Below are positions 1 to 18,693 of a stretch of 20,718 nt of DNA, piece by piece. Under the pieces are notes generated by a model, which saw only the letters and a list, made by a program, of their open reading frames with translations, was not told the origin of the DNA and did not search any database. Position 1 is the stretch's first letter; every line of letters begins with the position of its first letter. Position numbers and translations under genes: made by a program. The stretch comes from Candidatus Hydrogenedentota bacterium (GTDB lineage: Bacteria > Hydrogenedentota > Hydrogenedentia > Hydrogenedentales > SLHB01), in NCBI GenBank assembly GCA_029974275.1, contig JARKSN010000195.1, positions 1-20,718 on the forward strand, given 5' to 3'.

Positions 1-171
1 CACCCGGGCATGCAGGTACATCTCGCTGCGCAGCCCCGTAGTGGGATCCCGATACGCCAGCTTCTCCAACAGATGACAACGCTTCTCCAGGTCCGCGCGG
101 GATCGCGATTCTTCCCGAAGACGTTCCTGAAGATCTGCCACGGCTTTCTTCAGATTCTCAGTCTCGTCCAT
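1..171 (-). CDS. N-terminal part of a GGDEF-like (diguanylate cyclase fold) protein with a short N-terminal coiled coil; truncated by the window edge
   Basis: Manual translation from ATG at 171: MDETENLKKAVADLQERLREESRSRADLEKRCHLLEKLAYRDPTTGLRSEMYLHARV, open to base 1. LAYRDPTTGL resembles the LAxxDxLTGL motif that opens GGDEF domains. GGGAG RBS about 10 nt upstream. Not in the ORF track; the GGDEF motif itself lies outside the window. Confidence 0.7.
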   Translation of the reverse strand, partial: MDETENLKKAVADLQERLREESRSRADLEKRCHLLEKLAYRDPTTGLRSEMYLHARV

Positions 172-211
172 GTAGTGTCTACTCCCACGGCTCCAAGCCC
201 TCCTCCATCCT

Positions 212-227
212 CGCAAAAAACGTGCCG
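212..227 (-). promoter_or_regulatory. sigma-54 (RpoN) -24/-12 promoter for the GGDEF-like gene
   Basis: Minus strand reads CGGCACGTTTTTTGCG: GG-N10-GC with GGCACG and TTGC, close to the TGGCACG-N4-TTGC consensus, about 40 nt upstream of ATG 171. Confidence 0.75.
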
Positions 228-534
228 TTCAATCACCCTTCGTAATTGCCTGTGTTTTATAGCATTTTCACAGAAAACATATTCTATTGGCTTTGGTGGA
301 GTTCCCTCTCCGGAAATGCCTTGTAGCAGAGATAGTCACTTTTGACAACTTTTTATGCTTCTTGAGTAGGCATGTTCCCCGCCCGGGCTCGTCTTGATTT
401 CGCGCAACCGGTGCAGTAGCATGGCTTTTGTCAGGAGCACATCGCTTGCGAAAAGCCTGCGCCGCGGCGGATTCGGGATCGTCGCGAAAGATGGGTGCGT
501 GTTTCACAATCCCGTTTTTTCGATATAGATATAC

Positions 535-594
535 ACATATATGTTCAAACGGATATGTACATATGGTTCTTATGTAATGATGCCTTATTATACT
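535..594 (+). promoter_or_regulatory. candidate sigma-70 promoter with upstream palindromic sites for the 629-3759 operon
   Basis: AT-rich island with TATACT at 589-594 (weak -35) and perfect palindromes ACATATATGT (535-544) and ATATGTACATAT (553-564). Confidence 0.35.
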
Positions 595-628
595 CAGGAC
601 AGCCAGCTTCCGGCGGAACAGAGCGCTC

Positions 629-2308
629 ATGAACGATCCAAACTCTAAGGAGTCCCTAGCGCCGCATATTCTCGTCATCGAGGATGATCCGGCGCAGCGG
701 CTGTTTCTGGACAAGGTGTTGGCGATGTCCGGCTGGACGTGCAAAGTCGCCTCGACGTGCGCCGAGGCCCGCATGCTGTTCGCGAAGGACAAATTCGCCT
801 GCGCGCTCGTGGATTTGGGGCTTCCCGACGGAAGCGGGATGGGGTTGTTGCACGAATTTCACGGGGAAGACCCGTGCCTTACTCTCATCGTCCTCACCGG
901 CGACGCCAGCCCAGAGACCATCATCGGCAGCATGCGGAAAGGCGCTTTCGATTATCTCACCAAGCCGGTCGACATTACGTTGCTCACTGCGGCGGTGACG
1001 CGGGCCCTCGCCCATCACACCCTTCTTCGGGAGCGTTCCGAACTGTTGGCGCTGCTCTTGGACGAGCGCGAGAAGCTGCGCGCGCGCGTCGAACTCGCCA
1101 CGGCCGATATCCGGCAATACGCCGCCGCGTGCGAGCTGAGCAACACCCGCCTTCGCGCCTTGCTGAACTTGACCCAGCTTAGCGCCGGCCACTATTCCGA
1201 CCGCACCCTTTTGATGAGCGTGTTCTCCGAACTCTCTCGCCATCTTCCTTTTTGCTGCGTCGCCTTGTGCGATATCACGCGGCAGAAATTCGTGGCGGTG
1301 ACGGGGCGTGAGGACGGAGAGCTGGAGTTTCACAGCGCAGATGGAGTCATGGAAACATCCGGGTTGGATGTAATGCTGACTGACGCCGATCCTGCGTTTC
1401 AGATCCAGTCATGGGTGTCCCGATATACGGGGCTGGACACTCAGGGCATGTCCGTTTTTGTGTATCCTCAGACATTTTGGAATCGATCCATATCCACCAT
1501 CGGCTTTTATCTGCGGCCGGGGTTCGTGGGCGACGAAGTGGAACAGGAATTCCTGGGCATGTGCGCCTATTTTCTTGCCTTCGAGTACGAGCAGGCCCGC
1601 CTCCTGCTTCAGATAGCGCACCAGGCTAGCTTGGGGAATATCGGGGTGGAGCTCGCCCGCAATTTCGTTCCGCCGCTTTCGGCCATTCGCGTCGCCGCGG
1701 ATTTCGTCAGCGAAACAGGACTTTCTTCAGAGGCCAGTCAGGGCGTCGATATTATCCAGCAGAACGTCGAGCGATTGCGGCGGCAAACCCAGGAATTTCG
1801 CAAACTCTCCTCGCTGCGCGAGGACTCCCTCGAAACCGTGCGCCTCGATGAAATCGTCGGGCAGGCGCTCGAGATGCTTTCCGTCACCATCCAAAATCGC
1901 GGCGTCCGCATCGAACAGGCGTTCGAAGCGGACTGTCAATGCGTTCTGCTCAATGGCACGGCGTTGGCCCGCACCATATTGGATTTGATTCTCAATGCCC
2001 TCCGAACTGTCGAGGTGGGCGGCCTCGTCTCAATACGCGTTTTCGAGAGCGATCCGGACCACGTCGCCTTTGAGATTCGACACGCCGGAACCGCAGAAAA
2101 CTACTATTGCAAGGAGGACATGGCCTTTTTTCCCACAGCCCCCGGACCTGCCCATCGTCATCCCGGCCTTCAACTCGCGGAGCGAACGGTCCATAGTTGC
2201 GGCGGCGTCATCAGCGTCTCTCTTGACGATCGGGAACAGTGCCGTTTGTGCGTCCTTCTTCCCCGGAACGCCGCCAATCCCGGGGCCAAGCGGGAGAAAA
2301 TGGCATGA
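629..2308 (+). CDS. REC + GAF-like + degenerate HisKA/HATPase protein (histidine pseudokinase)
   Basis: Intact receiver (ILVIEDD, LVD62LGLPDGSG, LTG, KPVD), then a coiled coil and a GAF-like middle region. The C-terminus is kinase-like but the H-box reads SLGNIGVELAR344NFVPPL, G1 reads IRHAGT and G2 reads HPGLQL; the N-box-like LILNAL is retained. Confidence 0.85.
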   Translation: MNDPNSKESLAPHILVIEDDPAQRLFLDKVLAMSGWTCKVASTCAEARMLFAKDKFACALVDLGLPDGSGMGLLHEFHGEDPCLTLIVLTGDASPETIIGSMRKGAFDYLTKPVDITLLTAAVTRALAHHTLLRERSELLALLLDEREKLRARVELATADIRQYAAACELSNTRLRALLNLTQLSAGHYSDRTLLMSVFSELSRHLPFCCVALCDITRQKFVAVTGREDGELEFHSADGVMETSGLDVMLTDADPAFQIQSWVSRYTGLDTQGMSVFVYPQTFWNRSISTIGFYLRPGFVGDEVEQEFLGMCAYFLAFEYEQARLLLQIAHQASLGNIGVELARNFVPPLSAIRVAADFVSETGLSSEASQGVDIIQQNVERLRRQTQEFRKLSSLREDSLETVRLDEIVGQALEMLSVTIQNRGVRIEQAFEADCQCVLLNGTALARTILDLILNALRTVEVGGLVSIRVFESDPDHVAFEIRHAGTAENYYCKEDMAFFPTAPGPAHRHPGLQLAERTVHSCGGVISVSLDDREQCRLCVLLPRNAANPGAKREKMA

Positions 2309-3759
2309 ATTCTCACGGATTCCATGCTATTCCGCCGGAAGGAAACGCGTCCGAGGAACCCCGCCAGTCGCGCACGGTTCTTGTGCTGGATATGGATCCG
2401 GGCGTTCGCTGGGCCCTTGAAAAAGGATTGACGGCGTCGGGGTATGACGTCCGTTCTGTATCGAACGTGGGCGATGCCCTGCGCGCCGCGCAAACCGACG
2501 ACATTGGCGTCATCATCCTGGAGATGCTGCCCGAGGCAGGATTGACCGTCGATGTTTTGGGGACGTTGCTGGAAACCCCTTGCGCCCCGCGCATCGTATG
2601 CACCTCGATCGATGCCGCCCCGCAGACCGTCGTAGAATGCATTCGTCGCGGCGCCAGTGACTTCGTGCTCAAACCTTTTGGAATGACCGACATCCGGAAC
2701 GCTCTCAAGCGCGTGCTGCAGCCGAGCGAGGATGAACGTTCCTTTCTGCGGACCCAGCGTCCCGCAGCGCTCGATCCGTCGGGATCGTTCTTGATCGGCA
2801 TCAGTCAGTCGATGCAGGAACTTCGTGAAACCATCGCGCAGGTGGCGCAAACCGACCTCAACTGTCTGTTGCGCGGCGAAAGCGGAACGGGAAAGGACAT
2901 GGCCGCGCGTGAGATCCACCGCCTCTCCCGCCGTTCCGACAAGCCATTTGTCAAGGTGAATTGCACGGCCTTGCCGGAACACCTGCTGGAGAGCGAGCTG
3001 TTCGGATACGAGAAGGGGGCATTCACCGGGGCGGCGTCCAGCAAGCCGGGGCGATTCGAGCTGGCGCATCGCGGCGTGATCTTTCTGGACGAGATCGGCG
3101 ACATGCATCCCAATTTGCAAGCCAAGCTCCTGCAGGTGATCGAGCACAAGGAATTCATGAAGCTCGGCGGCAGACGATCGGTTCAGGTGGATGTCCAGAT
3201 CATCGCCGCCACGAACGCCGATCTCGAACAGCGCACTAAAGAAGGCGTTTTTCGGGGCGATCTCTATTTCCGCCTGAACGAACTCAGCATCTGGGTTCCG
3301 CCCCTTTCTTCCCGCAAGGAAGACGTTCCCTTGCTAGTCCGCCATTTCCTGCAAAAACATGGGCGCTTCGGATCGGGGCATCAGTTGGAGGTGACCGGCG
3401 AGGATTTTGCCGCCCTGACCGCTTATCCGTGGCCGGGCAACGTGCGCGAACTGGAAAGCACCATAAAACGCTGGCTTGCCCTGGGCGTCAAACATCCTCC
3501 GGGAACGTCTGGCAATCATGCCCTTTCTCGCGTCCCGGCGGCGGTTCCCGTTCCATCGCCGCCGCCTGCTCCGGCTGCGATGAATGGCATATCTTTTTCG
3601 GCCTCGGAGGATTCGGATGAGGTCGACGAATTGGAACGCATCCTGTCTGTGCTTGAGGAGCATCAATGGAACCGTCGAAAGGCCGCCGAGACTCTTGGAA
3701 TCAGTTATCAGACGCTTCGGCGCCGTATCGAAAAGTACGGTCTGGACAGGCAAGGCTGA
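2305..3759 (+). CDS. sigma-54-dependent NtrC-family enhancer-binding protein with atypical receiver (REC-AAA+-Fis HTH)
   Basis: Walker A GESGTGKD, GAFTGA, Walker B FLDEIGD, FRGDLYFRLN, WPGNVRELE and C-terminal HTH NRRKAAETLGISYQTLRRRI. Start moved to ATG 2305, which gives an ATGA overlap with the upstream stop (484 aa). Confidence 0.92.
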   Translation: MNSHGFHAIPPEGNASEEPRQSRTVLVLDMDPGVRWALEKGLTASGYDVRSVSNVGDALRAAQTDDIGVIILEMLPEAGLTVDVLGTLLETPCAPRIVCTSIDAAPQTVVECIRRGASDFVLKPFGMTDIRNALKRVLQPSEDERSFLRTQRPAALDPSGSFLIGISQSMQELRETIAQVAQTDLNCLLRGESGTGKDMAAREIHRLSRRSDKPFVKVNCTALPEHLLESELFGYEKGAFTGAASSKPGRFELAHRGVIFLDEIGDMHPNLQAKLLQVIEHKEFMKLGGRRSVQVDVQIIAATNADLEQRTKEGVFRGDLYFRLNELSIWVPPLSSRKEDVPLLVRHFLQKHGRFGSGHQLEVTGEDFAALTAYPWPGNVRELESTIKRWLALGVKHPPGTSGNHALSRVPAAVPVPSPPPAPAAMNGISFSASEDSDEVDELERILSVLEEHQWNRRKAAETLGISYQTLRRRIEKYGLDRQG

Positions 3760-3782: not shown

Positions 3783-5162
3783 CTACAACTCGAACGGTTT
3801 CCCCTCTTCTTGGATCATGACGTTCGTCATGCCTCGGTCCTTCAGGGCGCCTTCTAGGGCTTCAAGGGCCTCGTCTTCTCCATGCACCAAAACCACCTTC
3901 GCCGCGCAGTCCTTGAAGCGGAGGCCGAAATCGATCAGTTCCGAACGTCCCGCATGAGCGCTGAATCCATTCATCACCTTGACCTCCGCATTCAACGGTC
4001 GGTTGATCCCGAATATCTTGATTTCACGAGCCCGCTCGACAATGCGTCTGCCCAAGGTGTTCTTGGCCTGAAACCCCACAATCAAAATGAAATTGTCGGG
4101 ATTGCCCGCATGGTTGCGGAGATGGTGCAAGATGCGCCCCTGTTCGCACATGCCGGACGCCGAGATGATGATGGCAGGCCCCTTGAGAGCATTGAGCCGC
4201 ATCGATTCCTCGACATTCCGGATATACCGAATGTTTTGCAGTTCGAACGGATCGCCGGCTTCCTGCATGAGGCGCTGAATTTCCGCGTCAAAACATTCCG
4301 TATGCTGCCGAAACACCTCGGTAATGTTCGTCGAAAGCGGGCTGTCGACAAAAACCGGGATGGACGGGATGGCCTTGGCGGTTTCAAGGCGTTTCAACGC
4401 ATATACGATTTCCTGGGTGCGTTCGAGCGCAAAACTCGGCACAAGGATTTTGCCGCCTTGAGCGCAGGCGCGCTGCACGATTTCCGCAAGTTTTTGGTCC
4501 ATCTGTTCGATGGGATCGTGATCGCGATTGCCGTACGTGCCCTCCAACAAGACGACATCCGCCTCGCCGGGAACCCAGGGATCATTCAGGATAGGCATGT
4601 TTTTGCGGCCCAAATCGCCGCCGTACAACAGACGACGCCGTGCGCCGTTATCCTGGAATTCGACCATCGCCATCGCCGAACCGAGCACGTGACCTGCGTC
4701 ATGGAGCGTGCATGTCACATCCGGCGCGATCTCGAAGGACTCGCCATAGGGAACGCAGACGAAGCGCTGCATCGCCGTGCGCACATCGTTTTCGTCGTAC
4801 AGCGGAGCCACAAAGGCGCGACTTTTTTTCGAGAGCCACTCCGCATCGCGCTTTTGAATGTGCGCGCTGTCGAGAAGCATCAACGCGCATAGATCGCGCG
4901 TTGCGCAAGTCGAATATATGCGTCCCCGGTATCCCTGCTTCGTCAACATGGGAATCACGCCGCTGTGATCAATGTGCGCATGACTCAGCACGACGACGTC
5001 CAGCCTGTCAGGGGCGAACGGCAAGAAGCGGTTGCGGGTTTCCGCGTCGCGGCGAACGCCCTGAAACATGCCGCAGTCGAAGAGAATGCGATGGCCGTTG
5101 ACTTCCAGCAGGTGTTTGCTTCCGGTGACCGTGCGCGCGGCGCCGTAGGATGTAAGACGCAT
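3783..5162 (-). CDS. MBL-fold beta-CASP family metallo-hydrolase, probable ribonuclease
   Basis: GAARTVTGS start, SHAHIDHSG (HxHxDH), AGHVLGS, GDLG, EGTYG, SGMCEQGRILHHL, FSAHAG and VHGE motifs are all present. Confidence 0.92.
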   Translation of the reverse strand: MRLTSYGAARTVTGSKHLLEVNGHRILFDCGMFQGVRRDAETRNRFLPFAPDRLDVVVLSHAHIDHSGVIPMLTKQGYRGRIYSTCATRDLCALMLLDSAHIQKRDAEWLSKKSRAFVAPLYDENDVRTAMQRFVCVPYGESFEIAPDVTCTLHDAGHVLGSAMAMVEFQDNGARRRLLYGGDLGRKNMPILNDPWVPGEADVVLLEGTYGNRDHDPIEQMDQKLAEIVQRACAQGGKILVPSFALERTQEIVYALKRLETAKAIPSIPVFVDSPLSTNITEVFRQHTECFDAEIQRLMQEAGDPFELQNIRYIRNVEESMRLNALKGPAIIISASGMCEQGRILHHLRNHAGNPDNFILIVGFQAKNTLGRRIVERAREIKIFGINRPLNAEVKVMNGFSAHAGRSELIDFGLRFKDCAAKVVLVHGEDEALEALEGALKDRGMTNVMIQEEGKPFEL

Positions 5163-5731
5163 CAGATGGAAGCTTCCCTCTCGCGAACGTGCGGTGGATG
5201 GGCGCGATGCTCCGCAATGCAGCGCTCAATCAAACGGCGCGGATCATCGTCGTAGATGATCCGCGATCCCGTGTTCTTCTGGATTATCGGCAACACATCG
5301 TCGATATGGTCGGCGACGCCGCCCGTGCCCGTCAACACCCCGATGGGACGGCCCTCGTCGTATGCAATGGCGAATTCACCCAAGGTTCCCGAACGGCCGC
5401 CCACGATGATCACGATGTCGCAGCTTCGCACGCCGATGACCTCACGCCCCATCAAACCGCTTCCCGTATAGATCATCACGTCTATGTGATCCACGGGACT
5501 GCCGTAGCGATGAACGTGCTCGTACTGACTCAACGCCGGCGACACGCCCACCGTCAGTCCGCCGCGCTCCTTGCACCCCATGGTGGCGAAGTGCGGCAGC
5601 CCGGGACATCCGCCCGTCACCAGCGCGCACCCGGCCTCGGCAATCGCCCGGCCCAATTCTTTGCATCGCTCGACGATTTGAGAGGCCATGCCTCCGCCCG
5701 CGGACCCCATCACCCCGATCTGCAACCGCAT
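5162..5731 (-). CDS. LOG/SLOG superfamily nucleotide-binding protein (TIGR00725-like, putative nucleoside-monophosphate phosphoribohydrolase)
   Basis: IGVMGS, LGRAIAEAGCALVTGGCPG and GGRSGTLGE (PGGxGTxxE-like) motifs. ATG 5731 chosen because GAGGA lies upstream. Stop overlaps the downstream start (TGATG). Confidence 0.85.
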   Translation of the reverse strand: MRLQIGVMGSAGGGMASQIVERCKELGRAIAEAGCALVTGGCPGLPHFATMGCKERGGLTVGVSPALSQYEHVHRYGSPVDHIDVMIYTGSGLMGREVIGVRSCDIVIIVGGRSGTLGEFAIAYDEGRPIGVLTGTGGVADHIDDVLPIIQKNTGSRIIYDDDPRRLIERCIAEHRAHPPHVREREASI

Positions 5732-5769
5732 TGTGTTTTCCTCACTCAATAGATGACCACATCTTCATA

Positions 5770-8505
5770 TTAGAGAAGCGGCAGAGGAATTCCAAGAGCT
5801 GCGTTGATGACAAGTTGCACGTCCATGGCGTCGGTGCGCCCGTCTCCATCGATATCTGTGTCATAGGGAACGGAAAGTCGCAGGGCGCCATTGATAACCA
5901 GTTGCACATCCATGGCGTCCACGCGGGAATCGCCGTCGATGTCCGCAGGATTATCATCGGCCTTATCGTTTGGGTTCGTGCCGCGGTCGACTTCCACCCC
6001 ATCGAGCACTCCGCCGCCGTCCGTGTCGGGGTCGAGCGGGTTCGTGCCCGTGTTGGACGCGCTGGCCCACACCCCTGTGTTGGTCTCCACGCCGTCCTGC
6101 AACCCGTCATCGTCCGTGTCGGGATCGAGCGGATTCGTGCCGATTGCCGCCTCCTCATCATCGGTCAAACCATCTCCATCTTGGTCCACGATAACAAAAC
6201 GCTGGATCGCCATTGTGACGGGGGCGCTTTCGTCTCCCAGATCGCTTATGGCGGTAACGCTGATCGGATTATCGCCTATCTCTAGGTCCACAACCGTTTG
6301 CCATGTGGTTTCGCCGGCTTGATGTCCAATGGAAATTCCGTTGACCTTGAGATCGGCTGTAGCGACATGACACGTGCCCGAAAGGACCAACGAAGCGTTG
6401 GAAGTCGAGAAATTCGCGCCTCCGTTCGTGGTGATGGCCGGCGCAGCGAAATTCGTGGCCCCCACGCTGAAAATCCAGTATGCGTATTCGTTCCACGCTG
6501 GTGAGCCCGATGCAGGCACGATTCGAACGGTGACCTGGCTTTTGCCTGCCGTAAACGAGGCGGGCGCCATCATGCTCTCTTCGCGCCACTTGCGGGAAGA
6601 ATTGGTCGCCGCCGTGTAAAACGCGCCGAGCCGGACATCGTCGATGTAGACGTCGGCCCGCTGAACCTCGCTTTGATCGAACAAGCGACGGATCACCATG
6701 CCCTGATTGCCCGGGGCCAATTTGACGGTGAACTGGCTTTGTCCCGTGAAGGTGCGCCCATCGTCGGAAACCGAGACGTCGTCATCGTCCCCCTCAAAAA
6801 CGCTGGTCAATGAACCGGAAGCCGTTTGGGCGCTCACGGCGTAGGCGTGCGCCGCCTCGCTGGCTGTCTTGCCTACATCCAGCTTGTCCGTGAGAAACAA
6901 CCGCGCCGGCGCGTGATAGTACATCGCAAGAATATACGCATTGCACTGCGTATCATTCGTATGCCCGTGCTCTATCCCCATGCGAAAGCCCCGTTGAAAG
7001 GGAATCGCCTCCTGAAGAAGAATGCGGTACATGCTGCTCTTGTCGGGGGGGCCCGGGATGCGTTGCGTATAGCCCCATGTCGGCAACGTCTTCAACCCCC
7101 AGGCAAAGTAGTAGCCGTCGCAGAAAAAGTCTTCCGCACCCGTGCCTTGCAGCGCAGGCGTTCGGCTGCCGTCGAGATAGATGCGTTCGTCGCCCTCAAA
7201 ATGGATGCGATTCGCATCGCTGTTGGGATCGGGATTGTTCACGGTGCCCGTAACGGATTGCACCACGCCCACAAGATGTCCGGAGCCTTCTGTATGGAGC
7301 ACGGGCATGTCACGGCCTGGCGTGGACGGCTCCGAGATGTTGTACTGGGTCTTGAAATACCCGACGTTGGCGAAACTGTCCGTGAAGGGTTTGTGCGCCA
7401 CATCGAAGGCCACCGGACCCACGGAAGAAGCGCCCGCGTTGAACAACTCCACCTTGGCATGCGTCTCGAACGGCATCGGGAAATAGCAGTAGAGCGTGTT
7501 GCCAGCATCGAGACCGAGCATGAGCGAGCGGGGCGCTATGCCCACGCCATACCGGCCAATCGCGAAGAACAAGCCCAACGGAGCCTCAACGCTTGGGGCG
7601 TCCTCGCCGTTCCAATATATGCGCAGCGTAAGCGCGTTCAACTGGGCTTCCGTGGGCACGGATCCGCCAAAATTCATCCGGATCGCTTGAATCGTTTTGG
7701 GACCCGCAATGTCAAGCAACGTCGAAGCCGCGCCCGCCCCAAGGGTCACGTTGCCGGAAACAACCGTATTGCCCGCAGCATTTTTCGGATCAAGCGACAT
7801 CTTCGCTGGGTCCCAGGCCGCATCGGCGGCGGCTCGGTTTTCCGAACCGGTCCACGACGTCACGCTCGTATCCGGCGTGAAAATATGGTAATCGATGTTG
7901 TAAAACTTGAGTCGCGGCGTGATCACGCCGTTTTTGAGGTAGTTGTTGCTCGTGATTTTGATGCGTTGCGCAAAGGGAATGGGGTAAAAAGAAACGTCTG
8001 CGCCGCGGGCGTAGGCAATGGGATTTCCCTCCGCCTGATAGCGCATCAACGGAGCCAAAAACGGGGCCACCGGCGTGAACCACATTCTCCACAAATCGGT
8101 GCCCAGCGCCCCTGTGCTGAATCGAGGCGTCGGGTTGTTGTCGATATAGATGTTGAGCCCTGGAGGCGATCCCCCGTCATACCCCGTATACCAAAGACGG
8201 TAAATAACCCCCGGCCCTTCCAAATCGCACAAAACGTTCTCTTCGCTCAAGCTGGACGGCGGTTTGGCGATGAAATTGGGGCAGTTGAGATAATTGAGCT
8301 TGTCATCTCTTCCCCCTGTACGATCGAAACTTGACATGTGCCCCGCCTGGGTGTCCAGGCGCAAATAGGGAAGTCTATCAAACGCCGTGATGGCCGCCAG
8401 GCCTTTGGGCTCTGGGGCTGCGGCAAAGACGGTAGGCATGCCCCACAGAGAAGCGATCGTGACAACCACGGCCGCCCGGAATACGTGTATTGGCGCCTGT
8501 TGCAT
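5770..8505 (-). CDS. secreted DUF2961/GH172-family glycoside hydrolase with Ig-like, TSP3-like Ca-binding repeats and C-terminal dockerin
   Basis: SSFDRTGG, LEGPGVIYRLWYTG, LRIYWNGEDAPSVEAPLGLFF, YFPMPF, FEGDERIYLDG, GTGAEDFF and IPFQRGFRMGIEHG are DUF2961 hallmarks. Signal-peptide-like N-terminus from ATG 8505 with a GGAGG RBS; DxDxDGLxD repeats and duplicated dockerin at the C-terminus. Confidence 0.85.
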   Translation of the reverse strand: MQQAPIHVFRAAVVVTIASLWGMPTVFAAAPEPKGLAAITAFDRLPYLRLDTQAGHMSSFDRTGGRDDKLNYLNCPNFIAKPPSSLSEENVLCDLEGPGVIYRLWYTGYDGGSPPGLNIYIDNNPTPRFSTGALGTDLWRMWFTPVAPFLAPLMRYQAEGNPIAYARGADVSFYPIPFAQRIKITSNNYLKNGVITPRLKFYNIDYHIFTPDTSVTSWTGSENRAAADAAWDPAKMSLDPKNAAGNTVVSGNVTLGAGAASTLLDIAGPKTIQAIRMNFGGSVPTEAQLNALTLRIYWNGEDAPSVEAPLGLFFAIGRYGVGIAPRSLMLGLDAGNTLYCYFPMPFETHAKVELFNAGASSVGPVAFDVAHKPFTDSFANVGYFKTQYNISEPSTPGRDMPVLHTEGSGHLVGVVQSVTGTVNNPDPNSDANRIHFEGDERIYLDGSRTPALQGTGAEDFFCDGYYFAWGLKTLPTWGYTQRIPGPPDKSSMYRILLQEAIPFQRGFRMGIEHGHTNDTQCNAYILAMYYHAPARLFLTDKLDVGKTASEAAHAYAVSAQTASGSLTSVFEGDDDDVSVSDDGRTFTGQSQFTVKLAPGNQGMVIRRLFDQSEVQRADVYIDDVRLGAFYTAATNSSRKWREESMMAPASFTAGKSQVTVRIVPASGSPAWNEYAYWIFSVGATNFAAPAITTNGGANFSTSNASLVLSGTCHVATADLKVNGISIGHQAGETTWQTVVDLEIGDNPISVTAISDLGDESAPVTMAIQRFVIVDQDGDGLTDDEEAAIGTNPLDPDTDDDGLQDGVETNTGVWASASNTGTNPLDPDTDGGGVLDGVEVDRGTNPNDKADDNPADIDGDSRVDAMDVQLVINGALRLSVPYDTDIDGDGRTDAMDVQLVINAALGIPLPLL
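5791..5943 (-). repeat. duplicated dockerin-type Ca-binding repeat (intragenic)
   Basis: DIDGDSRVDAMDVQLVINGAL ... DIDGDGRTDAMDVQLVINAAL; also visible in the DNA (gttgcac[g/a]tccatggcgtc twice). Confidence 0.8.
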
Positions 8506-8662
8506 GGTGTTCAAACCTCCAAAGGAAAAATTCGGCAACCTCGTTACAGAAGACAAACCCTTACGCAAAACGAACTGTCTTTTCTCACATAATACAAGAG
8601 GAACGGCGAGACCTTCACTCTTTTTTCATGAAGCAGCCACTCGTCAAATCGACCTCTACACT

Positions 8663-11301: not shown

Positions 11302-14300
11302 TTATGGCGCGGCGCGACGTCGGCGCATGCGGCGCGCACCTGTCACGCCAAGCCCTGTCGCAAGCAGGAGCAATGCTACGGGCGTCGCCACCGGCACGCC
11401 GGGCTGACCGCCGGTGCGCGGAGGACTGTCGGGATCGAGCGGGTTGGTGCCCAGCGCCACTTCGATGCCGTCGGAAACTCCGTCGCCGTCGGTGTCCCAG
11501 TTCTGCCAATCGGTCTCGTTGCCTTCATGCGGCCAACGCATGGGGAATGCCGCATCCACATGGTCCCAGACGCCGTTGCCGTTGACATCTTCAACGGAAT
11601 CGAGCAATCCGTCGCCATCGCTGTCTCCTCCGGGCACGGAAGAGGTCTCGGCTACGCCCGCCAGGAAGAATATGCCCCAAACGTCCGTGTTGGCCACGAG
11701 CGAGGTTTCGCCCGCCTTCTGGAGAGAGGCGTTCATCCATTCGATCTGTTGGGTGCGTCCGTTCACCCGGCCCATGCGCAGCGATGAGACAGGAACGCGT
11801 GTTCCGTCGACGTAGCCGTCGCTGTTTTCGTCCTTGAACCATATCTGCACGGGACCGATGGCGCTGCCGTTGACGAAAGTGGTCTCCGGCTTCACGCGGT
11901 AGCAGGAGCCGTTGAGTATCTGGGCGTCTCCCTCCAGCGGGAATCGAGGTTCCCTGTCCAATGTGATGGTCAGACGGGAAACGCTTGTGATCCGGCCCGG
12001 CAAGACGGTGACTTTGATGAAATCACGGTAGGCCCATCCGCCGATAATGGTCACGATGGCGGTGTTGCTCGGGCTTTGCGTGATGCTCACCGTGCGCGTA
12101 ACCGGCACGGCGGCGTTGCCGGCGGTGTCGGTCACGTTATAGAGGACGGTGTACGTCCCGGGCACGTTCACGTTGACCGGGTTGGTGGTCACAATCCGCA
12201 AAGTGATGTCGCCGTCGATATTGTCCGAAGCGGTCGCGCCGGCATCGGTGTAATCCAGCGTCCACTCTTGGGCGAGCGACGAGGGCCCCAATCGCGTAAT
12301 CACCGGAGCGGTGTTGTCGGCGCGCAGGACGGCAGGGCTTGCCGCGCCCGCCGCTTGGTTGCCGAAACTGTCTTCGGCGCTTCCGGGCAGCACACTGAGG
12401 GCAAGCGTGCCGTCGCCGGTGACGTTGGTGAGCGTCACCGTGCGCTGGAGCGTGCCGGAACCGGAAACCGTGACCGTAGCGGCGGCTGTGCCGGTGGGCA
12501 ACAGGGTGATGCGAGCCAAGTCAAGCGTGACAAGGTCCGCGCCGCTATAGTTGACCGTATAGGTAACCGTCCGGTCTTTGTTCGCAATCGCCGGGTTGGG
12601 TCCGGATACGGAGAGCGTAGGCGGCGTGTTATCCACTTCAAACGTGGCGCTTGACGCCGATGACGCGCAGAGGTTCCCGGCCAGATCGCTGGCCGTTCCG
12701 CTGTCGATGGAGATGCCCAAAGAGCCGTCTCCCGTGATGTTGGAAATGGTCACGGTGCGCGCCGTTATGCCGGAACCCGTCACCGACACTGTGCCATTGG
12801 CGGATCCCGTCTTGTTTAGGGTGACATTCGTGGCTGCCAGGACGATGTCGTCCGCGCCGGCATAGGTGACCGTATACGACACGGTCTGTCCGTTGCGCGC
12901 TTTGGGCTGCGACGGAGCGCTCACGCTCACGGTGGGCTGCGTGTTGTCAACTGTCACCGGGGCGCTGGCAGCGGCGGGCGCAGGGTCGTTGTACCAATCG
13001 GTTCCCGTTCCTGAAGGAATCGAGAGGCTAACGGTCCCGTCTCCGGAGATGCCCGTCAGCGTGATGAGACGCGTGCTGGTTCCGGATCCCGAGACAGTGG
13101 CGGTACCCGTGGCCGTGCCCGTCGTGGCGATCGCAACGTCAGAGGTGAGCAGGTTCACTGCCTTCATGCCGACATAGGTCACGGTATACGTCACTGGCCC
13201 ATGCTGGGTTGGGGTCAGGGACGGTCCGGCGATCGTAACGCCGGGCACCGAAGACATCACCAACACGTTAGCGGGAGAATCCGGCGCCTCCGCCACGTTG
13301 CCCGCTGCGTCAGTCGCGGTGCCAGAAGCGACGGCAATGCCCAATTCGCCGTCGCCGACGATGTTGCTGATCACAATCTGACGGGTGGAAGGCCCGGAAC
13401 CGGAGACAGAGACTTGACCTCCCACACTCCCCGTCGGCAGCAAGGTCACGTCCGAGGCGGCCAGGGAGATGCCTTCGGAATCGAGATTCGCGTCCGCATA
13501 GGTGACGGTGAAGAGCACGGTCGTCGGGTTCGATCCGCCTGCGCGAGCGCTTGATGCCGCGCTCACCGTTACGGTCGGCGCGGTGTTGTCCACCACGACC
13601 GTCGGACTGGCCGAGCTGGCCGGCAAATTGTCATCAAAAACGTCCTTTGCGGCGCCTGCCAGGATGGTGATGCCGAGCGTGCCGTCGCCGGTGATGTTTG
13701 TCACCGTGACGAAGCCGCCTGCGGTTGTGAAGCCGGTAGCAGTCACCGTCGGGGCGTTCGGACCGCTGCTGGGGACTGTCCCCGTCGTGTTCAACTGCAC
13801 GTAGGCGCCAATGTCCGCCAAGGCGCTTGCCGCGTTGGAGAAGGTGACGGGGAAGGAAACTCCCGATCCATCGTTCACGAACCCTGCGCTGGGCGCGCCG
13901 ACGCTGGTTAGGGCTTGGGCGGTACTCACCGTGACCGAAGCGGTCGTTGCAATGCCCGGGGCAAGGTTGCCCGCGAGATCGACGGCTGTGCCTTCGCCGA
14001 TGACGATATGCAACGAACCGTTTCCGGTGCAATTGTCGAGGGTAACGCTGCGCGTGTTGCCGCTCGATCCGCCGATCGTGACCGTGCCGGCGGCCGCATC
14101 GCCGGAGTCAGTCACCACCGTGACATCGGAAGAGGCCAATGTAATTTGGCTCTGACCTCCGTAGGTGATGGTGTACGTCGCCGGTCCCGTCGCGATGAGG
14201 GACGGAGTTGGCGCGCTGGCGCTAATCGTGGGCGGCGTATTGTCCACCGTGACAGAACTTGCGCTCGAAGCCGCGGCCGCGGTCACGCCCCAGAAGTCCG

Positions 14301-17300
14301 CGCCTGAGCCCGAAGCCAGGGAAATGCCCAACGAGCCGTCGCCGCCGATATCCGTCAGGCGAATGGTCCGCGTCGTTATGCCCGTAAGCGCATTCGGAGC
14401 CGCGCCGCCCGGCAGCACGTTCTTTGTGCCGGCAGCCGTGCCCGTTGCGTTCACCGAGACGAGGCTCAACAACGTCGCGTCATTCACGACGCTCGCCATG
14501 CCTTGGTAGCTGATCGTGAAGTCCACGATTCCGGCTTTGACGGGGCCTGCCGGAGCGGGACCGCTAATGGAAACCGATGGGGCGTTGTTTTCCACCTTGC
14601 ATGTGGCGCTGGGGCCGACCGCGGCGGACAAGTTCAACGCGGCATCGCTGGCTGCGCCTTGGTTGACGCTGATGCCCAGCGTGCCGTTCCCCTGAACGCT
14701 CGTAATGGCGATCGTGCAGGTCGCTGTGCCGCTCATGTCGATGTTGCCCGAACGCGACGTCACGCTCAACGCGCCCGTCGCGCTGCCGGTGGCGTTCAGG
14801 GATACGTACGTGTTGACGGTGGGAACGTCCAGATTGACCAGATCGCCGCTCTGGCCGCTGAAGGTCAACACGTATTGGATCGGCCCTGATCCGGTGAGTG
14901 TTGGCGAGGGGCCGCTCGTGATCGAGACCGTCGGCGCGGTCTTGTCAACCGTGAAACTCGTGGAGGCGGAACCGGAATTCCCGGCCACGTCGGTCCCCGA
15001 TACGTTCACGGAAGCGGACCCATTGCTGTCTGAACCGCTCACCACATAGGTGTACACGTAATTGAGACCGCTGCTGGCGCCGCTCTTCGTCGCGGGGTTT
15101 CCGTTGACCGTCACGGTCGGATCGGCGCTTAACGTCTCGGAAGCCGTAAACGAAATGGTCACTGTCGCGCCTTGCTTCGCGTACGCCGGCGCCGCCGTCA
15201 AGGAGGAGAACGTCGGCGCGGTATTGTCCACCGCGAACGCAACGGCCGCCGAGGATCCCAGCGCGGCGTTGGCGGCGTTGTCGCGCGCCGTATTCGCGGG
15301 AATGCTAACGCTTACCTCCGAGGCGCTTCCGGTAATGGACGACAGGGTGATAGTCCGGCTGGAGCCCGATCCGGAGATGGCGATGGAACCCACGGAGACG
15401 CTGCCGTTCTGACTCACGGATACGTCCGTCGACGCCAGGGCGATGGTCGATTCCTGGATGCCGCTCGACACGCCCTCGACGGAGGGATCGCTATAGGTCA
15501 CCGTATAACTCACGGGACCGCCGCGCGTCAACGAAACGCTCGGGGAACCGATCGTCGCCGTCGGCAAGGCGTTGTCCACGGTGAATTCGGCGCTGGGACC
15601 CGCCGCGACGGAACTGTTGCCGGCTCCGTCCGTGGCCGCGCCCGCATCGATCGACAGACGCACCTTGCCGTTGCCCGTGATGCCGGAAATGATGATGGTG
15701 CGGCTTAGGCCGGTGCCGCCAATGGCGCGTTGCGCATTGCTCAAATCCACGCTGCCCGCCGTCTGTTGCAGCGTGACGTATCCCGCACTCGCGCCCGCGC
15801 CGTTCGCCAACGCAATGAGCAAGCTCGAGCTGTTCGCCTCGGTGAAGCTCACCGTGAACGAGACGGTTCCCGACGCGTTCATCGCCGCGGGCGTCGGGCC
15901 TTCCGATATTGTCACCACGGGAGCGACGGTGTCATAGGTCCAACTCAGAATGTTGCTGGGGGCGCAATTGTTTTGCGCGGTATCCTTGGCTCCGCCCGCG
16001 TTCACGCTGATGTCGAACGCACCCTGGCTCGGCACGATCTCGAAGGCATACGAACTGCCCGATCCGGTGAGATTCTGCACCGTGCAATTGGTTGCCGTGA
16101 AACTTGCCGGCGCCGCCAAACCCGTCACCGGCTCGTCAAAGGTCAACGTCACCGGAATGGGAGAAATCTTCGTGTAGCCCAGCGGGACCGACGAACTCAA
16201 TGTGGGCGTCGGGGCCGTATTGTCCACCGGAACCGCCGAACTGGTCACATCCGCCGCGGGACCGCTGTTGCTATTCTGGTCCACGGCGGAGCCGGCCTTC
16301 ACCGTGATGCTCACGTCGCCGTTGCCGCCCGTGATCGGCACCGACACCTGGACCGTCGCCGACGCAGCCGGCAATGCGGGGTTCGGATTGCCCGCCGTGA
16401 CGCTGCCCAGCGTCACGCCCGGCGCATTCACCAGGATGTTTGCGCCTATGGCGCGGTTGATGGTGGAAAGCGCCAAATTATCCGTGTAGGTGATGGTGAA
16501 AACGATCGTGTCGCCCGTCCTTGCATAGGTGCGGTTCGCCGTGATGCTTTGCACCGTCGGGGCTTGATTGTCCAGATTGACGAGCACGCCGCCGCTGTTC
16601 GACGACCACGCGCTCCAGTTGCCCGCTGCATCGCGGCAACGAACCCGTGCGTAGTACGTGGTCGAGTCCACGCCCGTGAACCCATACGTCAATACGGCAA
16701 GGTTGGCATTGTCGAGAATATTGTTGCCGCCTGGGGTCGTGCCGATTTGCACATGGTATCGATCGATGCCACTGCCGCCGATGTCTCCGGGATTGACCCA
16801 ATCGAAGGTCACGTCGAGGCCTGAAGCGGACCCGGTCGGGGCCGCCGGCGTGTTGGGGACGTCGGCGTCATATAGAACCCCGGAAGTCATCGAAGCATAG
16901 GGGCCCGTCATGCCCATGGCGTCTGTCGCGCGCACGCGGCAGAAGTAGGCCGTTCCGCTCGTCCCCGTAAACGGGTTGCTGCTCAAGCCTGGCACGCTGC
17001 CCGAACTCACCACATTCGAGAAAGCCGCATCCGTAGCGATTTGGTAGTCATAGCTCGCCACGCCCGAACCGCTGCCATCCGATGCAGCAGTCCACGTGAA
17101 CGTGATCGCCGTATTGGTCGGGTTCGCTGCGCTCGTAGGCACGCCCGGCGCATCCGGCGCCGTCGTGTCCAGCGTGATGGTGTCTGTCGCATTCGGCGAA
17201 AGGTTGCCCGCCAGATCGATGTAGCGGGCGTAGACCGTTTTCACGCCGTCGCCCGAACTCAGGGTCCACGGCTTGCCGGAAGTGGAATAGGTCTCCGCCG

Positions 17301-18693
17301 TGCTCCATGTCGATCCGTCATTGCTGAACTGCATTTGGTTCACGCCTGACAATGCGTCCGACGCATTCGGCGTCAGAATGACCGACGTAGAGGCAGCATA
17401 CGCATCCCCGGAATTAATCACCACCGCATACGTATTCGGGGCTGTCCGGTCTATCCAGAACGGGCCGCGATGCACGGCGGCGCTCGCGTTGCCCGCATTA
17501 TCGACTGTCCGCACATGGAAGTAATAACTGGTGCCGTCCGACAAGGAAGGACTCGTGTAACTCAGTCCTGTCGTCTCCACCGATGTGTCCGGAGTGGTGG
17601 CGGCGCTCGTGTCCCAGACGTACGAATACCCCGCCACCCCGCTGCCTGAATCCGTTCCCGCGGACCATGTCACGTTCACGGTCGCGCTGTTCGACCACGC
17701 CGAAGGGGCAGGAGAACCGCCTAAATTCGATGGGGCTGCGGGGGCCGTTTGGTCGGCAAAGGAGGCCGTGACAGATTTGTTGCCGTTCATGGTCAGATTT
17801 TGCGGATTGGTCGTGCCCGACAAGGCGCCGGACCAGCCGGTGAAGGTGTATCCGGCGCTGGGGATCGCCTGAACGGATATCACCTCGCCCGAGAGATATG
17901 TACTCCCGCTTGCGGGAGTGACCGAACCGTTGCTTGCGCTCCACGTAAACGTGTAGGACGGGACTGTCACCCCGGCGCTGTTTGCGGAGTAGGACCCATA
18001 ATTACCGACATTATCCCTGGCGCGAACACGCGCGTAATAGGTAGTGCCCTTTGTGCCGGTAAACGAGTAAGAAGTGGTATTGCCAATCCATCCATCGGCG
18101 ACATTGTTGCCACCTGCTGACGTGCCCACTTGGATATAGTAGCCCGCGAGTCCGGACATGCTATCGGACGCTCCACTCCAGCTGAAGGTCACGGTGCTGG
18201 CCGGTGTGCCGCTCACGGAGCCACTCGGCGTCCCCGGCGTGGTGGGCGCGGTGCCGTCGTAATTGAAGTCGGCGGTCACATACCCAGAGGAGTTGCAGAC
18301 AATCTTCACGCGAACTCTGCGGGTGTTGCCAGAAACAAGGTACGATCGAACGGCATTGCCCGTTCGGGTTGCTTGGTACAATTCCCACACAGACCAAGCG
18401 TCTGGCTGAGTGCTGGAATCGGTTCCGCTGGTTTGGAAACTAAAAACCTGCACGTATTCCAAAGTGCCCGTGGCTCTGCCGTAGACCGTGACATTGGGCG
18501 TCGTGGTGCCCGACCATCCGCTGACAAGCCCGTTGATGGTGACGGAGCCAGTGGAATAGTTGGCGTGCGCGGGAACCGCGGCCACGGCCAGCATCAGCGC
18601 CACCCCGATCGCTATCGCCGCTCCCTTCGCGCCTCTCGTGAGCGCGTCGATACGGAACAGAGGCTGTCCCCAGGACTTTTTCCCAGTTTTCAT
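11302..18693 (-). CDS. giant (2463 aa) repetitive cell-surface protein/adhesin: FN3-like, InlB-B-like, Ig-like repeats, DUF5011-like, TSP3-like, C-terminal sorting tail
   Basis: GAGGT RBS; signal peptide ending VPAHA; Ser/Thr/Gly/Ala-rich beta repeats delimited by (V)DNTxP and DxAGN. Also GYTFTGWSG InlB-B-like repeat, DUF5011-like DAGATASDNIDGDIT..GTYTVLYNVTDTAGN, DSDGDGLLD/DTDGDGVSD repeats, and a VPVATP-hydrophobic-RRMRRRR tail. Confidence 0.9.
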   Translation of the reverse strand: MKTGKKSWGQPLFRIDALTRGAKGAAIAIGVALMLAVAAVPAHANYSTGSVTINGLVSGWSGTTTPNVTVYGRATGTLEYVQVFSFQTSGTDSSTQPDAWSVWELYQATRTGNAVRSYLVSGNTRRVRVKIVCNSSGYVTADFNYDGTAPTTPGTPSGSVSGTPASTVTFSWSGASDSMSGLAGYYIQVGTSAGGNNVADGWIGNTTSYSFTGTKGTTYYARVRARDNVGNYGSYSANSAGVTVPSYTFTWSASNGSVTPASGSTYLSGEVISVQAIPSAGYTFTGWSGALSGTTNPQNLTMNGNKSVTASFADQTAPAAPSNLGGSPAPSAWSNSATVNVTWSAGTDSGSGVAGYSYVWDTSAATTPDTSVETTGLSYTSPSLSDGTSYYFHVRTVDNAGNASAAVHRGPFWIDRTAPNTYAVVINSGDAYAASTSVILTPNASDALSGVNQMQFSNDGSTWSTAETYSTSGKPWTLSSGDGVKTVYARYIDLAGNLSPNATDTITLDTTAPDAPGVPTSAANPTNTAITFTWTAASDGSGSGVASYDYQIATDAAFSNVVSSGSVPGLSSNPFTGTSGTAYFCRVRATDAMGMTGPYASMTSGVLYDADVPNTPAAPTGSASGLDVTFDWVNPGDIGGSGIDRYHVQIGTTPGGNNILDNANLAVLTYGFTGVDSTTYYARVRCRDAAGNWSAWSSNSGGVLVNLDNQAPTVQSITANRTYARTGDTIVFTITYTDNLALSTINRAIGANILVNAPGVTLGSVTAGNPNPALPAASATVQVSVPITGGNGDVSITVKAGSAVDQNSNSGPAADVTSSAVPVDNTAPTPTLSSSVPLGYTKISPIPVTLTFDEPVTGLAAPASFTATNCTVQNLTGSGSSYAFEIVPSQGAFDISVNAGGAKDTAQNNCAPSNILSWTYDTVAPVVTISEGPTPAAMNASGTVSFTVSFTEANSSSLLIALANGAGASAGYVTLQQTAGSVDLSNAQRAIGGTGLSRTIIISGITGNGKVRLSIDAGAATDGAGNSSVAAGPSAEFTVDNALPTATIGSPSVSLTRGGPVSYTVTYSDPSVEGVSSGIQESTIALASTDVSVSQNGSVSVGSIAISGSGSSRTITLSSITGSASEVSVSIPANTARDNAANAALGSSAAVAFAVDNTAPTFSSLTAAPAYAKQGATVTISFTASETLSADPTVTVNGNPATKSGASSGLNYVYTYVVSGSDSNGSASVNVSGTDVAGNSGSASTSFTVDKTAPTVSITSGPSPTLTGSGPIQYVLTFSGQSGDLVNLDVPTVNTYVSLNATGSATGALSVTSRSGNIDMSGTATCTIAITSVQGNGTLGISVNQGAASDAALNLSAAVGPSATCKVENNAPSVSISGPAPAGPVKAGIVDFTISYQGMASVVNDATLLSLVSVNATGTAAGTKNVLPGGAAPNALTGITTRTIRLTDIGGDGSLGISLASGSGADFWGVTAAAASSASSVTVDNTPPTISASAPTPSLIATGPATYTITYGGQSQITLASSDVTVVTDSGDAAAGTVTIGGSSGNTRSVTLDNCTGNGSLHIVIGEGTAVDLAGNLAPGIATTASVTVSTAQALTSVGAPSAGFVNDGSGVSFPVTFSNAASALADIGAYVQLNTTGTVPSSGPNAPTVTATGFTTAGGFVTVTNITGDGTLGITILAGAAKDVFDDNLPASSASPTVVVDNTAPTVTVSAASSARAGGSNPTTVLFTVTYADANLDSEGISLAASDVTLLPTGSVGGQVSVSGSGPSTRQIVISNIVGDGELGIAVASGTATDAAGNVAEAPDSPANVLVMSSVPGVTIAGPSLTPTQHGPVTYTVTYVGMKAVNLLTSDVAIATTGTATGTATVSGSGTSTRLITLTGISGDGTVSLSIPSGTGTDWYNDPAPAAASAPVTVDNTQPTVSVSAPSQPKARNGQTVSYTVTYAGADDIVLAATNVTLNKTGSANGTVSVTGSGITARTVTISNITGDGSLGISIDSGTASDLAGNLCASSASSATFEVDNTPPTLSVSGPNPAIANKDRTVTYTVNYSGADLVTLDLARITLLPTGTAAATVTVSGSGTLQRTVTLTNVTGDGTLALSVLPGSAEDSFGNQAAGAASPAVLRADNTAPVITRLGPSSLAQEWTLDYTDAGATASDNIDGDITLRIVTTNPVNVNVPGTYTVLYNVTDTAGNAAVPVTRTVSITQSPSNTAIVTIIGGWAYRDFIKVTVLPGRITSVSRLTITLDREPRFPLEGDAQILNGSCYRVKPETTFVNGSAIGPVQIWFKDENSDGYVDGTRVPVSSLRMGRVNGRTQQIEWMNASLQKAGETSLVANTDVWGIFFLAGVAETSSVPGGDSDGDGLLDSVEDVNGNGVWDHVDAAFPMRWPHEGNETDWQNWDTDGDGVSDGIEVALGTNPLDPDSPPRTGGQPGVPVATPVALLLLATGLGVTGARRMRRRRAAP
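12316..16570 (-). repeat. about 11 diverged ~105-120 aa Ig-like repeats (intragenic)
   Basis: Approximate consensus PTVSxSxPS..GPVTYTVTY..LxxSDVTL..TG..GSG..RTxTxxNITGDGTLGISxxxGxAxDxxGN..VDN, counted by eye from the translation; two Ig-like domains of a different type are interspersed. Confidence 0.8.

Follow-up and report, generated by a model that had tools for sequence, protein, structure and literature searches.

A pseudokinase and a sigma-54 activator lacking their phosphorylation sites in Hydrogenedentota, with a candidate PEP-CTERM regulon

How could a histidine-kinase homologue control a response regulator when neither protein has the residue through which phosphate would pass between them? 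The question is raised by a 20,718-nucleotide stretch of DNA (the window) from a Candidatus Hydrogenedentota bacterium, contig JARKSN010000195.1 of assembly GCA_029974275.1, which is the whole of contig C89 of the source genome G000 (4.4 Mb, 342 contigs). At one end of the window, a kinase-like protein (the pseudokinase) and an NtrC-like sigma-54 activator (B1) are encoded in tandem and face a divergent gene. An initial annotation, made from the sequence, had described a self-contained and apparently phosphotransfer-free circuit, signalling by protein contact to a c-di-GMP-related (cyclic di-GMP) output. Our analysis identifies the pair as real and ancient: a non-phosphorylating form of two-component control, so far undescribed, for which a candidate regulon can be defined.

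Loss of the phosphorylation sites in both partners

Alignment of the pseudokinase with four canonical kinases of the same layout places an arginine (Arg344) at the H-box histidine position, while the G1 box (DxGxG) reads HAGTA and the G2 box HPGLQL. Both catalytic domains score below their Pfam cut-offs (HisKA 21.4 against 26.9, HATPase_c 15.3 against 26.4). The DHp-CA fold is predicted to be present, with an AF2 model of mean pLDDT 81 whose top Foldseek matches are ZraS, LvrB, HK853 and DivL. The N-terminal REC domain scores above the Pfam cut-off and carries D19, D62, T90 and K112, and a GAF-like domain was assigned through alignment to P0055. With REC at the N-terminus, no membrane helix is visible in the sequence or the model, no dedicated transmembrane predictor having been run.

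Conservation was counted over 69 kinase and 62 activator sequences. In the 66 pseudokinases covering the H position, this residue is arginine (43), lysine (22) or glutamine (1) and never histidine, which the canonical relatives have. The G1 aspartate is found in 0/66 and the G2 box is lost, and the catalytic N-box asparagine survives in two of the 66, one of them the window copy. The receiver residues D62, T90 and K112 are each present in 66/66, in line with the intact REC domain noted at the outset. A displaced phospho-histidine at H331 was ruled out, as it is retained in just 40 of the 66; a phosphatase role was ruled out as well, since the E/D after the H position is absent and the partner has no aspartate.

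In B1, the phospho-aspartate position is occupied by a glutamate (Glu73), as in all 62 activators. The Walker A, GAFTGA, Walker B and arginine-finger elements are intact in the window copy, and across relatives GAFTGA and Walker B are found in 61/61 and R317/R323 in 59/59; the Pfam matches are PF00158 and PF02954. Judged from these domains, an AAA+ module and a helix-turn-helix (HTH), B1 is classed as a sigma-54 enhancer-binding protein and not as a phosphorylated NtrC-type activator. A search with the pseudo-receiver returned 21 proteins, and both of those with a named organism come from Hydrogenedentes.

Among 135 genomes of the phylum, 69 carry the pseudokinase, 65 the activator and 63 both, that is, 63 of the 71 with either gene. 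In each of the 61 fetched loci that contain both, the two genes lie side by side in the same orientation, and in the window their reading frames share an ATGA overlap at 2305-2308. Six genomes have the kinase only, in five of them at or near a contig end. Genome G007 (100% complete) encodes only a pseudokinase, among the most diverged copies, and has neither the activator nor any PEP-CTERM match, which represents a real loss of the activator. In a profile search of 1.84 billion proteins, the pseudokinase family scored about 450-810 bits over its full length, followed by a sharp fall to canonical kinases of the same layout at about 180-214 bits; no family member outside the phylum was shown, and one contig carries a Nitrospiraceae label.

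The same substitutions are found across eight families. Within genera, the median ratio of nonsynonymous to synonymous substitution rates (dN/dS), a rough estimate with dS near 1, lies at 0.04-0.14 in all eight domains (DHp 0.07, dead CA 0.14, pseudo-receiver 0.085, AAA+ 0.04, HTH 0.08). Contigs from two other DNA runs span both substituted sites, with no alternative letter there among the 40 of 68 differences listed. As read from these sequences, both losses are ancient, fixed and under purifying selection; they are not decay, because the substitutions recur across the eight families and dN/dS is far below 1. The initial annotation had proposed that phosphate donor and acceptor were lost together while the coupled frames stayed full length, and this description stands: close homologues retain neither the histidine nor the aspartate, and adjacency is conserved with them.

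The sigma-54 promoter, its enhancer and the PEP-CTERM genes

Upstream of the divergent gene, whose frame starts at position 171 on the minus strand, the sigma-54 core GGCACG-N4-TTGC has one match in the window against 0.07 expected (7 of 100 shuffles reach one), and the full 17-mer deviates from consensus at three positions. From the window sequence alone this promoter is only suggestive. The site can be considered solid in view of related sequences, because it is conserved in 35/35 loci: 18/18 of the first set and 17/17 of a later one (14 with a matrix score of at least 10), 39-74 nt upstream of the start. De novo motif sampling yielded a palindrome, TTGTCA-N4-TGACAA, in 15 of the 18 training loci, mostly at 121-125 bp, and in 17/17 held-out loci, congeners of the training loci, at 123-125 bp upstream. 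Thus, the near-consensus -24/-12 promoter initially described is upheld, and an enhancer lies within the expected range of about 100-200 bp upstream of it. Between the two elements runs an A/T-rich tract (window 229-330; the same stretch in L002, L103 and L114), which may resemble an IHF site in several loci. The strong match to the enhancer at G000:C122:13600 falls within a coding region and was taken as chance.

The divergent gene is cut by the contig end. Its 3' part (the last 109 codons) ends contig C211 of the same genome (L130:8178-8507), some 21 codons being in neither contig; relatives encode 180-193 residues. No GGDEF Pfam match is found in its 57 window codons, and we assign the GGDEF fold because of the orthologues, which combine a coiled coil with this fold, and of the 3' part on C211. 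The GG[D/E]EF motif is present in 0/33 copies and the metal-binding segment is deleted. Four residues, R63, R98, D101 and R129 (L105 numbering), aligned with cyclases, are invariant in 33/33 and presumably correspond to the I-site in PleD numbering, going by the spacing in PleD. A four-residue c-di-GMP I-site has been described for PleD, with its residues named (PMC7288161). The divergent protein is therefore a predicted c-di-GMP receptor, not an enzyme. Strong matches to the gene occur in 39/135 genomes, in two families only (five weak matches to ordinary cyclases were dropped), and in 36 of the 69 pseudokinase-positive genomes; because only 39/135 genomes carry it, it is an accessory target and not the core output. 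What remains of the proposed c-di-GMP-related output is a gene with a retained I-site under an enhancer and a sigma-54 site, and what falls is its cyclase-like and central character.

Three further observations concern this gene. Contigs of two sludge metatranscriptomes are identical to window 1-187 and 1-159, with the pair little covered, a weak hint that the divergent gene is transcribed (such contigs carry no strand, start or level). A second copy at L199:5599-6150 (G009:C177) has neither an enhancer nor a sigma-54 site in its vicinity. Genome G030 has no divergent gene; there another small reading frame at L186:389-778 (G030:C125), degenerate and GGDEF-like by eye (no Pfam match), lies under the same enhancer and sigma-54 site, near the sister activator B2 described below.

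Of 29 loci, seven have a PEP-CTERM gene immediately after the activator, and an eighth has one close by. Across genomes, a loose enhancer-plus-promoter pattern gave 62 matches in 41 genomes against 8 for a reversed control; 15 of these precede the divergent gene, 19 a PEP-CTERM gene, one a gene with a variant tail, and 27 other genes or chance. As an unbiased test, 60 of 61 TIGR02595 loci from seven pair-positive genomes were scored with a matrix trained on divergent-gene sites only. They hold 69 PEP-like reading frames, six without upstream DNA and 45 with a sigma-54 site, and 25 of these 45 promoters have the enhancer 95-140 bp upstream (shuffle expectation 1.8; flanking windows 3 and 4). 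The spacings cluster near 113, 123 and 133 bp and show a periodicity of about one helical turn (R 0.47, p about 0.004). In G000, which also encodes an exosortase and a TPR gene, the enhancer accompanies 4 of 330 sigma-54-like sites, two of them at PEP-CTERM genes, one at the divergent gene and one elsewhere. Counted per genome, the pair and PEP-CTERM matches are both present in 64, the pair only in 7, PEP-CTERM only in 13 and neither in 51, agreeing in 115/135. Two other comparisons carry no weight: in pair-negative genomes G041, G042, G043 and G123, 0/2 scorable sigma-54 PEP-CTERM promoters have the enhancer, too few to count, and a phylum-wide profile of the exact pattern (48/135 positive, 5/23 in a pair-less family among them) is too noisy for use.

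The listing of G000 activators also revealed B2, a receiver-less activator (G000:C331:24120-25211; L391:8118-9212). B2 and B1 share 43% identity, with the recognition helices SYSSLLRRI and SYQTLRRRI, respectively, and B2 is the sister of B1 in a quick tree (SH-aLRT 98). By genome, B2 and the pair are both present in 63, the pair only in 8, B2 only in 3 and neither in 61. Other B2 loci have their own sigma-54 site and enhancer in 7-8 of 17 cases, and G000 B2 has neither; the latter follows an ECF sigma/anti-sigma-like cluster and directly precedes polysaccharide export/chain-length-like genes (named by their sequence only). Candidates for reading the enhancer are B1, B2 or the two together, and this is the main uncertainty of the regulon claim. 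In any case the circuit is not self-contained as initially proposed: many PEP-CTERM genes not linked to the pair have this enhancer and sigma-54 site in front of them, and an additional activator encoded elsewhere shares the recognition helix.

Beyond these genes, a family 2 glycosyltransferase encoded at L179:384-1184 (G037:C28), some 10 kb away from the pair, has the enhancer and a sigma-54 site upstream, in a genus without PEP-CTERM matches among its pair-positive genomes. In G041, an outgroup without the pair, two PEP-CTERM-like genes (L253, L265) share a different motif about 95 bp before a weak sigma-54 site, which hints at another regulator. G007 has a strong enhancer match (L201:1488, G007:C37) 2.5 kb from its orphan pseudokinase, without a sigma-54 site; it may be chance or a relic.

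The coordinates of the locus are collected in Table 1. Near-identical DNA is present in wastewater, activated sludge and digester runs. Convergent on the activator, a beta-CASP metallo-beta-lactamase-fold nuclease and a SLOG protein are encoded at window 3783-5749 (-), a neighbourhood not kept beside the pair in relatives. Further along the minus strand follow a 932-residue DUF2961 protein with TSP3 and dockerin at its end (5770-8568) and a 2463-residue Ig/fn3/TSP3 surface protein whose C-terminal tail resembles a membrane anchor (11302-18693). Similar A/T-rich TATATGTGTATAT-type stretches lie upstream of the pair operon (window 541-590) and of a glnK-like gene (G000:C91, upstream of 18051).

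Table 1. Features of the pseudokinase-activator locus in the window.
Feature	Position	Strand	Remarks
Divergent gene, 5' part (57 codons): coiled coil and start of degenerate GGDEF domain	1..171	-	Cut by contig end
Sigma-54 -24/-12 promoter of divergent gene (core GGCACG-N4-TTGC at 213-226)	212..228	-	Conserved in 35/35 loci; rpoN present in G000
Palindromic enhancer (upstream activating sequence, UAS), consensus TTGTCA-N4-TGACAA	332..349	.	121 bp upstream of -24 element; predicted site for B1 and/or B2
Putative sigma-70-like promoter of pseudokinase-activator operon (TTGATT-N17-TAGCAT)	394..422	+	Pattern in 11/17 intergenic regions
Pseudokinase, 559 aa: intact REC (D62, codon 812-814), long coiled coil, GAF-like domain, DHp His>Arg (R344, codon 1658-1660), degenerate ATP-binding domain	629..2308	+	
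Activator B1, 484 aa, predicted sigma-54 enhancer-binding protein: pseudo-receiver (Asp>Glu73, codon 2521-2523), intact AAA+ (GAFTGA 3016-3033), Fis-type HTH	2305..3759	+	

A contact switch and its alternatives

These observations lead us to propose, tentatively and with somewhat less than even confidence, that the dead kinase and the Glu-receiver activator form a contact switch, in which the pseudokinase would hold the activator off until its own receiver is phosphorylated. Mechanistically, the co-oriented and often overlapping genes lie behind a sigma-70-like promoter, which would provide matched amounts of both proteins. A kinase or small phosphodonor would phosphorylate Asp62, and the resulting change would travel through the coiled coil to the GAF-like domain and the DHp, as in LvrB. 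The DHp dimer is predicted to bind the pseudo-receiver at the surface by which kinases and receivers normally meet, with no phosphate involved. Replacement of aspartate by glutamate often mimics the phosphorylated state, e.g. in NtrC; because of this, and of the coupled expression, we mildly favour inhibition over activation as the sign of the contact. The freed activator would then bind TTGTCA-N4-TGACAA about 100-135 bp upstream of sigma-54 promoters, switching on genes for PEP-CTERM surface proteins, the divergent gene with its c-di-GMP-receptor-like product and, in several genomes, B2, which would amplify the response.

The contact itself is suggested by two lines of evidence. Conservation of the pseudo-receiver peaks in alpha1 (0.82), the beta3-alpha3 loop (0.84) and the beta5-alpha5 loop (0.91), against 0.41-0.46 in alpha2/alpha3, and that of the pseudokinase is 0.73 in DHp alpha1 and 0.25 in the ATP lid; we take the conserved faces to be those used in kinase docking. 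Co-folding of the DHp-CA dimer with the pseudo-receiver scored 0.52 against 0.01 for the best control, with at least 93% contact agreement between runs and a partner pLDDT of 84, and weakly supports the complex. The mark it passed is reached by 116/157 solved and 2/215 mismatched pairs, at scores of 0.60 or below by only 18 solved pairs and both mismatches, and the score may reflect likeness to solved kinase-regulator complexes. We infer a DHp-pseudo-receiver contact from both, so that signalling through protein contact, as initially suggested, gains indirect support.

As for the input, phosphorylation of D62 from outside is the most likely one, because this residue is invariant in 66/66. The circuit would thus be free of phosphotransfer in its kinase-to-activator step and probably not overall. 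A kinase with 7TM, GAF and PAS domains (7TM, seven-transmembrane), encoded beside an enhancer-bearing PEP-CTERM gene (G000:C24:5676-8183), was considered as the Asp62 donor and rejected: it occurs in 87/135 genomes, many of them pair-less, is missing from some pair-positive ones, and its operon ends in its own Asp-bearing activator in 20/20 relatives. Nor is it PrsK (125 against 300). It belongs to a second conserved pseudokinase system. At G000:C24:5676-10087 (L344), the next gene after this kinase (His in 21/21) encodes a protein of REC, GAF, DHp and CA domains, whose His is replaced by Gln in 21/21 and whose G boxes are intact in G000; a canonical sigma-54 activator comes next in 20/20 relatives, not adjacent in G000, and the system is found in 85-87 of the 135 genomes.

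Several points weigh against the contact switch and its regulon. Twenty of the 45 sigma-54 PEP-CTERM promoters have no strong enhancer, and the 13 genomes with PEP-CTERM matches but no pair, together with the seven of the converse kind, depart from the correlation. The genomes are kin, so the two-by-two tables and the phasing test overstate significance. Genome G031 has B2 and enhancer-bearing PEP-CTERM promoters (2/3), yet neither gene of the pair was found there; B2, with its matching recognition helix, follows the enhancer no less closely than B1 does. No donor for Asp62 was found, the sole candidate tested belonging to another operon. The precedent of NifL-NifA (see below) is only partial, as NifL contacts the AAA+ domain of NifA and still binds ADP. 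Finally, the binding of pseudokinase and B1, its sign and the DNA recognition by B1 are predictions.

The alternatives differ in which of these steps they replace. The sign could be the opposite, with the Glu-receiver keeping B1 off and the Asp62-phosphorylated pseudokinase binding and switching it on allosterically in place of phosphotransfer. The phospho-mimic nature of glutamate speaks against this, and we regard it as rather unlikely. The contact evidence as a whole is compatible with both signs, the docking face seems to be the canonical receiver surface, which is normally activating, and receiver phosphorylation in LvrB releases the output domains (PMC13269768); coupled, matched expression is on the other hand typical of anti-activator pairs such as NifL-NifA (PMC12998190). 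Slightly less probable still, and unlikely in our judgement, is that B2 would be the main enhancer reader, or that B1 and B2 would act only as a mixed ring, the pseudokinase controlling the regulon indirectly via B1. Such a ring has a precedent in HrpR/HrpS (PMC3105312), and B2 as sister of B1 has a nearly identical recognition helix, co-occurs with the pair, stands upstream of the polysaccharide export-like genes in G000 and would explain G031. However, G031 has B2 without B1, against an obligate ring; the AAA+ domain of B1 is fully intact and its HTH conserved (dN/dS 0.04 and 0.08), the strongest and most fixed enhancer lies beside the B1 operon, and the frequent sigma-54 site and enhancer of B2 itself fit a downstream target.

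We consider it quite improbable that the two proteins make no contact at all, the pseudokinase acting via a real kinase (as heterodimer or scaffold) or as a phosphate sink through Asp62, and B1 responding to another ligand or to feedback from the divergent protein. The invariant receiver would fit, as would the coiled coil and intact c-di-GMP I-site of the divergent protein, in a divergent layout similar to that of pspF/pspA. However, many pair-positive genomes lack the divergent gene, conserved DHp and CA domains would be superfluous in a pure sink, and the co-fold and surface conservation favour direct docking. Lineage-specific decay or an assembly error in an ordinary two-component pair, which the fragmented assembly might invite, is scarcely credible given the recurrence of the substitutions, the low dN/dS and the agreement of the other two runs' contigs in the differences listed.

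The contact switch would extend, in a bolder form that we hold to be somewhat unlikely as a whole, to a complete and ancient circuit whose two-component pair gave up phosphotransfer while retaining the docking interface. A phosphorylated pseudokinase would gate the Glu-receiver activator, and this in turn would drive both its own receiver-less copy, as a positive-feedback latch, and a c-di-GMP-reading dead cyclase. The result would be a bistable switch of a PEP-CTERM/polysaccharide coat, replacing PrsK/PrsR in about half of the phylum.

Comparison with known systems

No description of the pair was found in the literature searched, and Hydrogenedentes with PEP-CTERM returned 0 papers, most subscription papers being beyond reach; this agrees with the view that the arrangement is not a named system.

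The mixed parts of the locus recall several systems. LvrB is likewise a single soluble protein with REC, a signalling coiled coil, DHp and CA domains, and phosphorylation of its REC reshapes the output end (PMC13269768; PDB 8vc9), but it is an active kinase, has no GAF domain and signals to an anti-sigma factor (PMC13269768). HrpR/HrpS with HrpV resembles B1 and B2 in its duplicated sigma-54 activators and its control through protein binding; HrpR/S are tandem, whereas B1 has a pseudo-receiver and B2 has none and is usually unlinked (PMC3105312). Degenerate GGDEF receptors of the PelD type share the GGDEF fold, the missing catalytic motif and the retained I-site with the divergent protein (PMC7288161), which differs in being a predicted small soluble protein of coiled coil and GGDEF with no known partner.

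A natural kinase-regulator pair that has lost both phosphorylation sites and is still under strong selection allows the canonical docking surface to be tested as the sole carrier of a signal, a route that would differ from NifL-NifA. In addition, Haft et al. 2006 left the PEP-CTERM regulator and DNA box outside Proteobacteria still to be found, and the present analysis names a candidate for each. PEP-CTERM proteins have been tied to floc formation in other bacteria (PMC9850573), and our organism occurs in activated sludge and digesters. All parts being small and soluble, the system could be rebuilt in E. coli despite its uncultured host.

In function, the pair is to be compared with NifL-NifA and with PrsK/PrsR. 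In Azotobacter vinelandii, NifL, a histidine-kinase homologue without phosphorylation activity, binds the co-expressed sigma-54 activator NifA stoichiometrically via its DH and GHKL domains (PMC12998190), and the likeness consists in a dead kinase paired with such an activator (PMC12998190). NifL, however, senses through PAS-FAD and binds ADP/ATP, whereas the pseudokinase has an intact REC and a GAF-like input, no PAS and no G boxes; NifA, which has a GAF domain but no receiver, is bound at its AAA+ domain, whereas B1 has a Glu pseudo-receiver with a conserved docking face and predicted targets other than nif. PrsK/PrsR were defined via a phylogenetic profile that tracks an enhancer and sigma-54 site upstream of PEP-CTERM genes (PMC1569441, PMC9850573), and share with our pair this profile and the tandem of a kinase and an NtrC-like activator; the system also comprises PrsT, and G000 resembles it in having an exosortase and a TPR gene. 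Here too the parts differ: PrsK is a transmembrane kinase and the pseudokinase soluble and dead, and the Prs box is a 17-nt element ending in TTTACA with a spacer of 63 +/- 11 nt, against TTGTCA-N4-TGACAA starting about 100-135 nt before the promoter. With TIGR02915 and TIGR02916 as models, B1 scores 307.5, well short of the 502.6 required for PrsR, a cut-off that nothing in G000 reaches, and PrsK is not among the 25 best families listed for the pseudokinase. Taken globally, the pair would work like NifL-NifA and fill the role of PrsK/PrsR, and is a member of neither.

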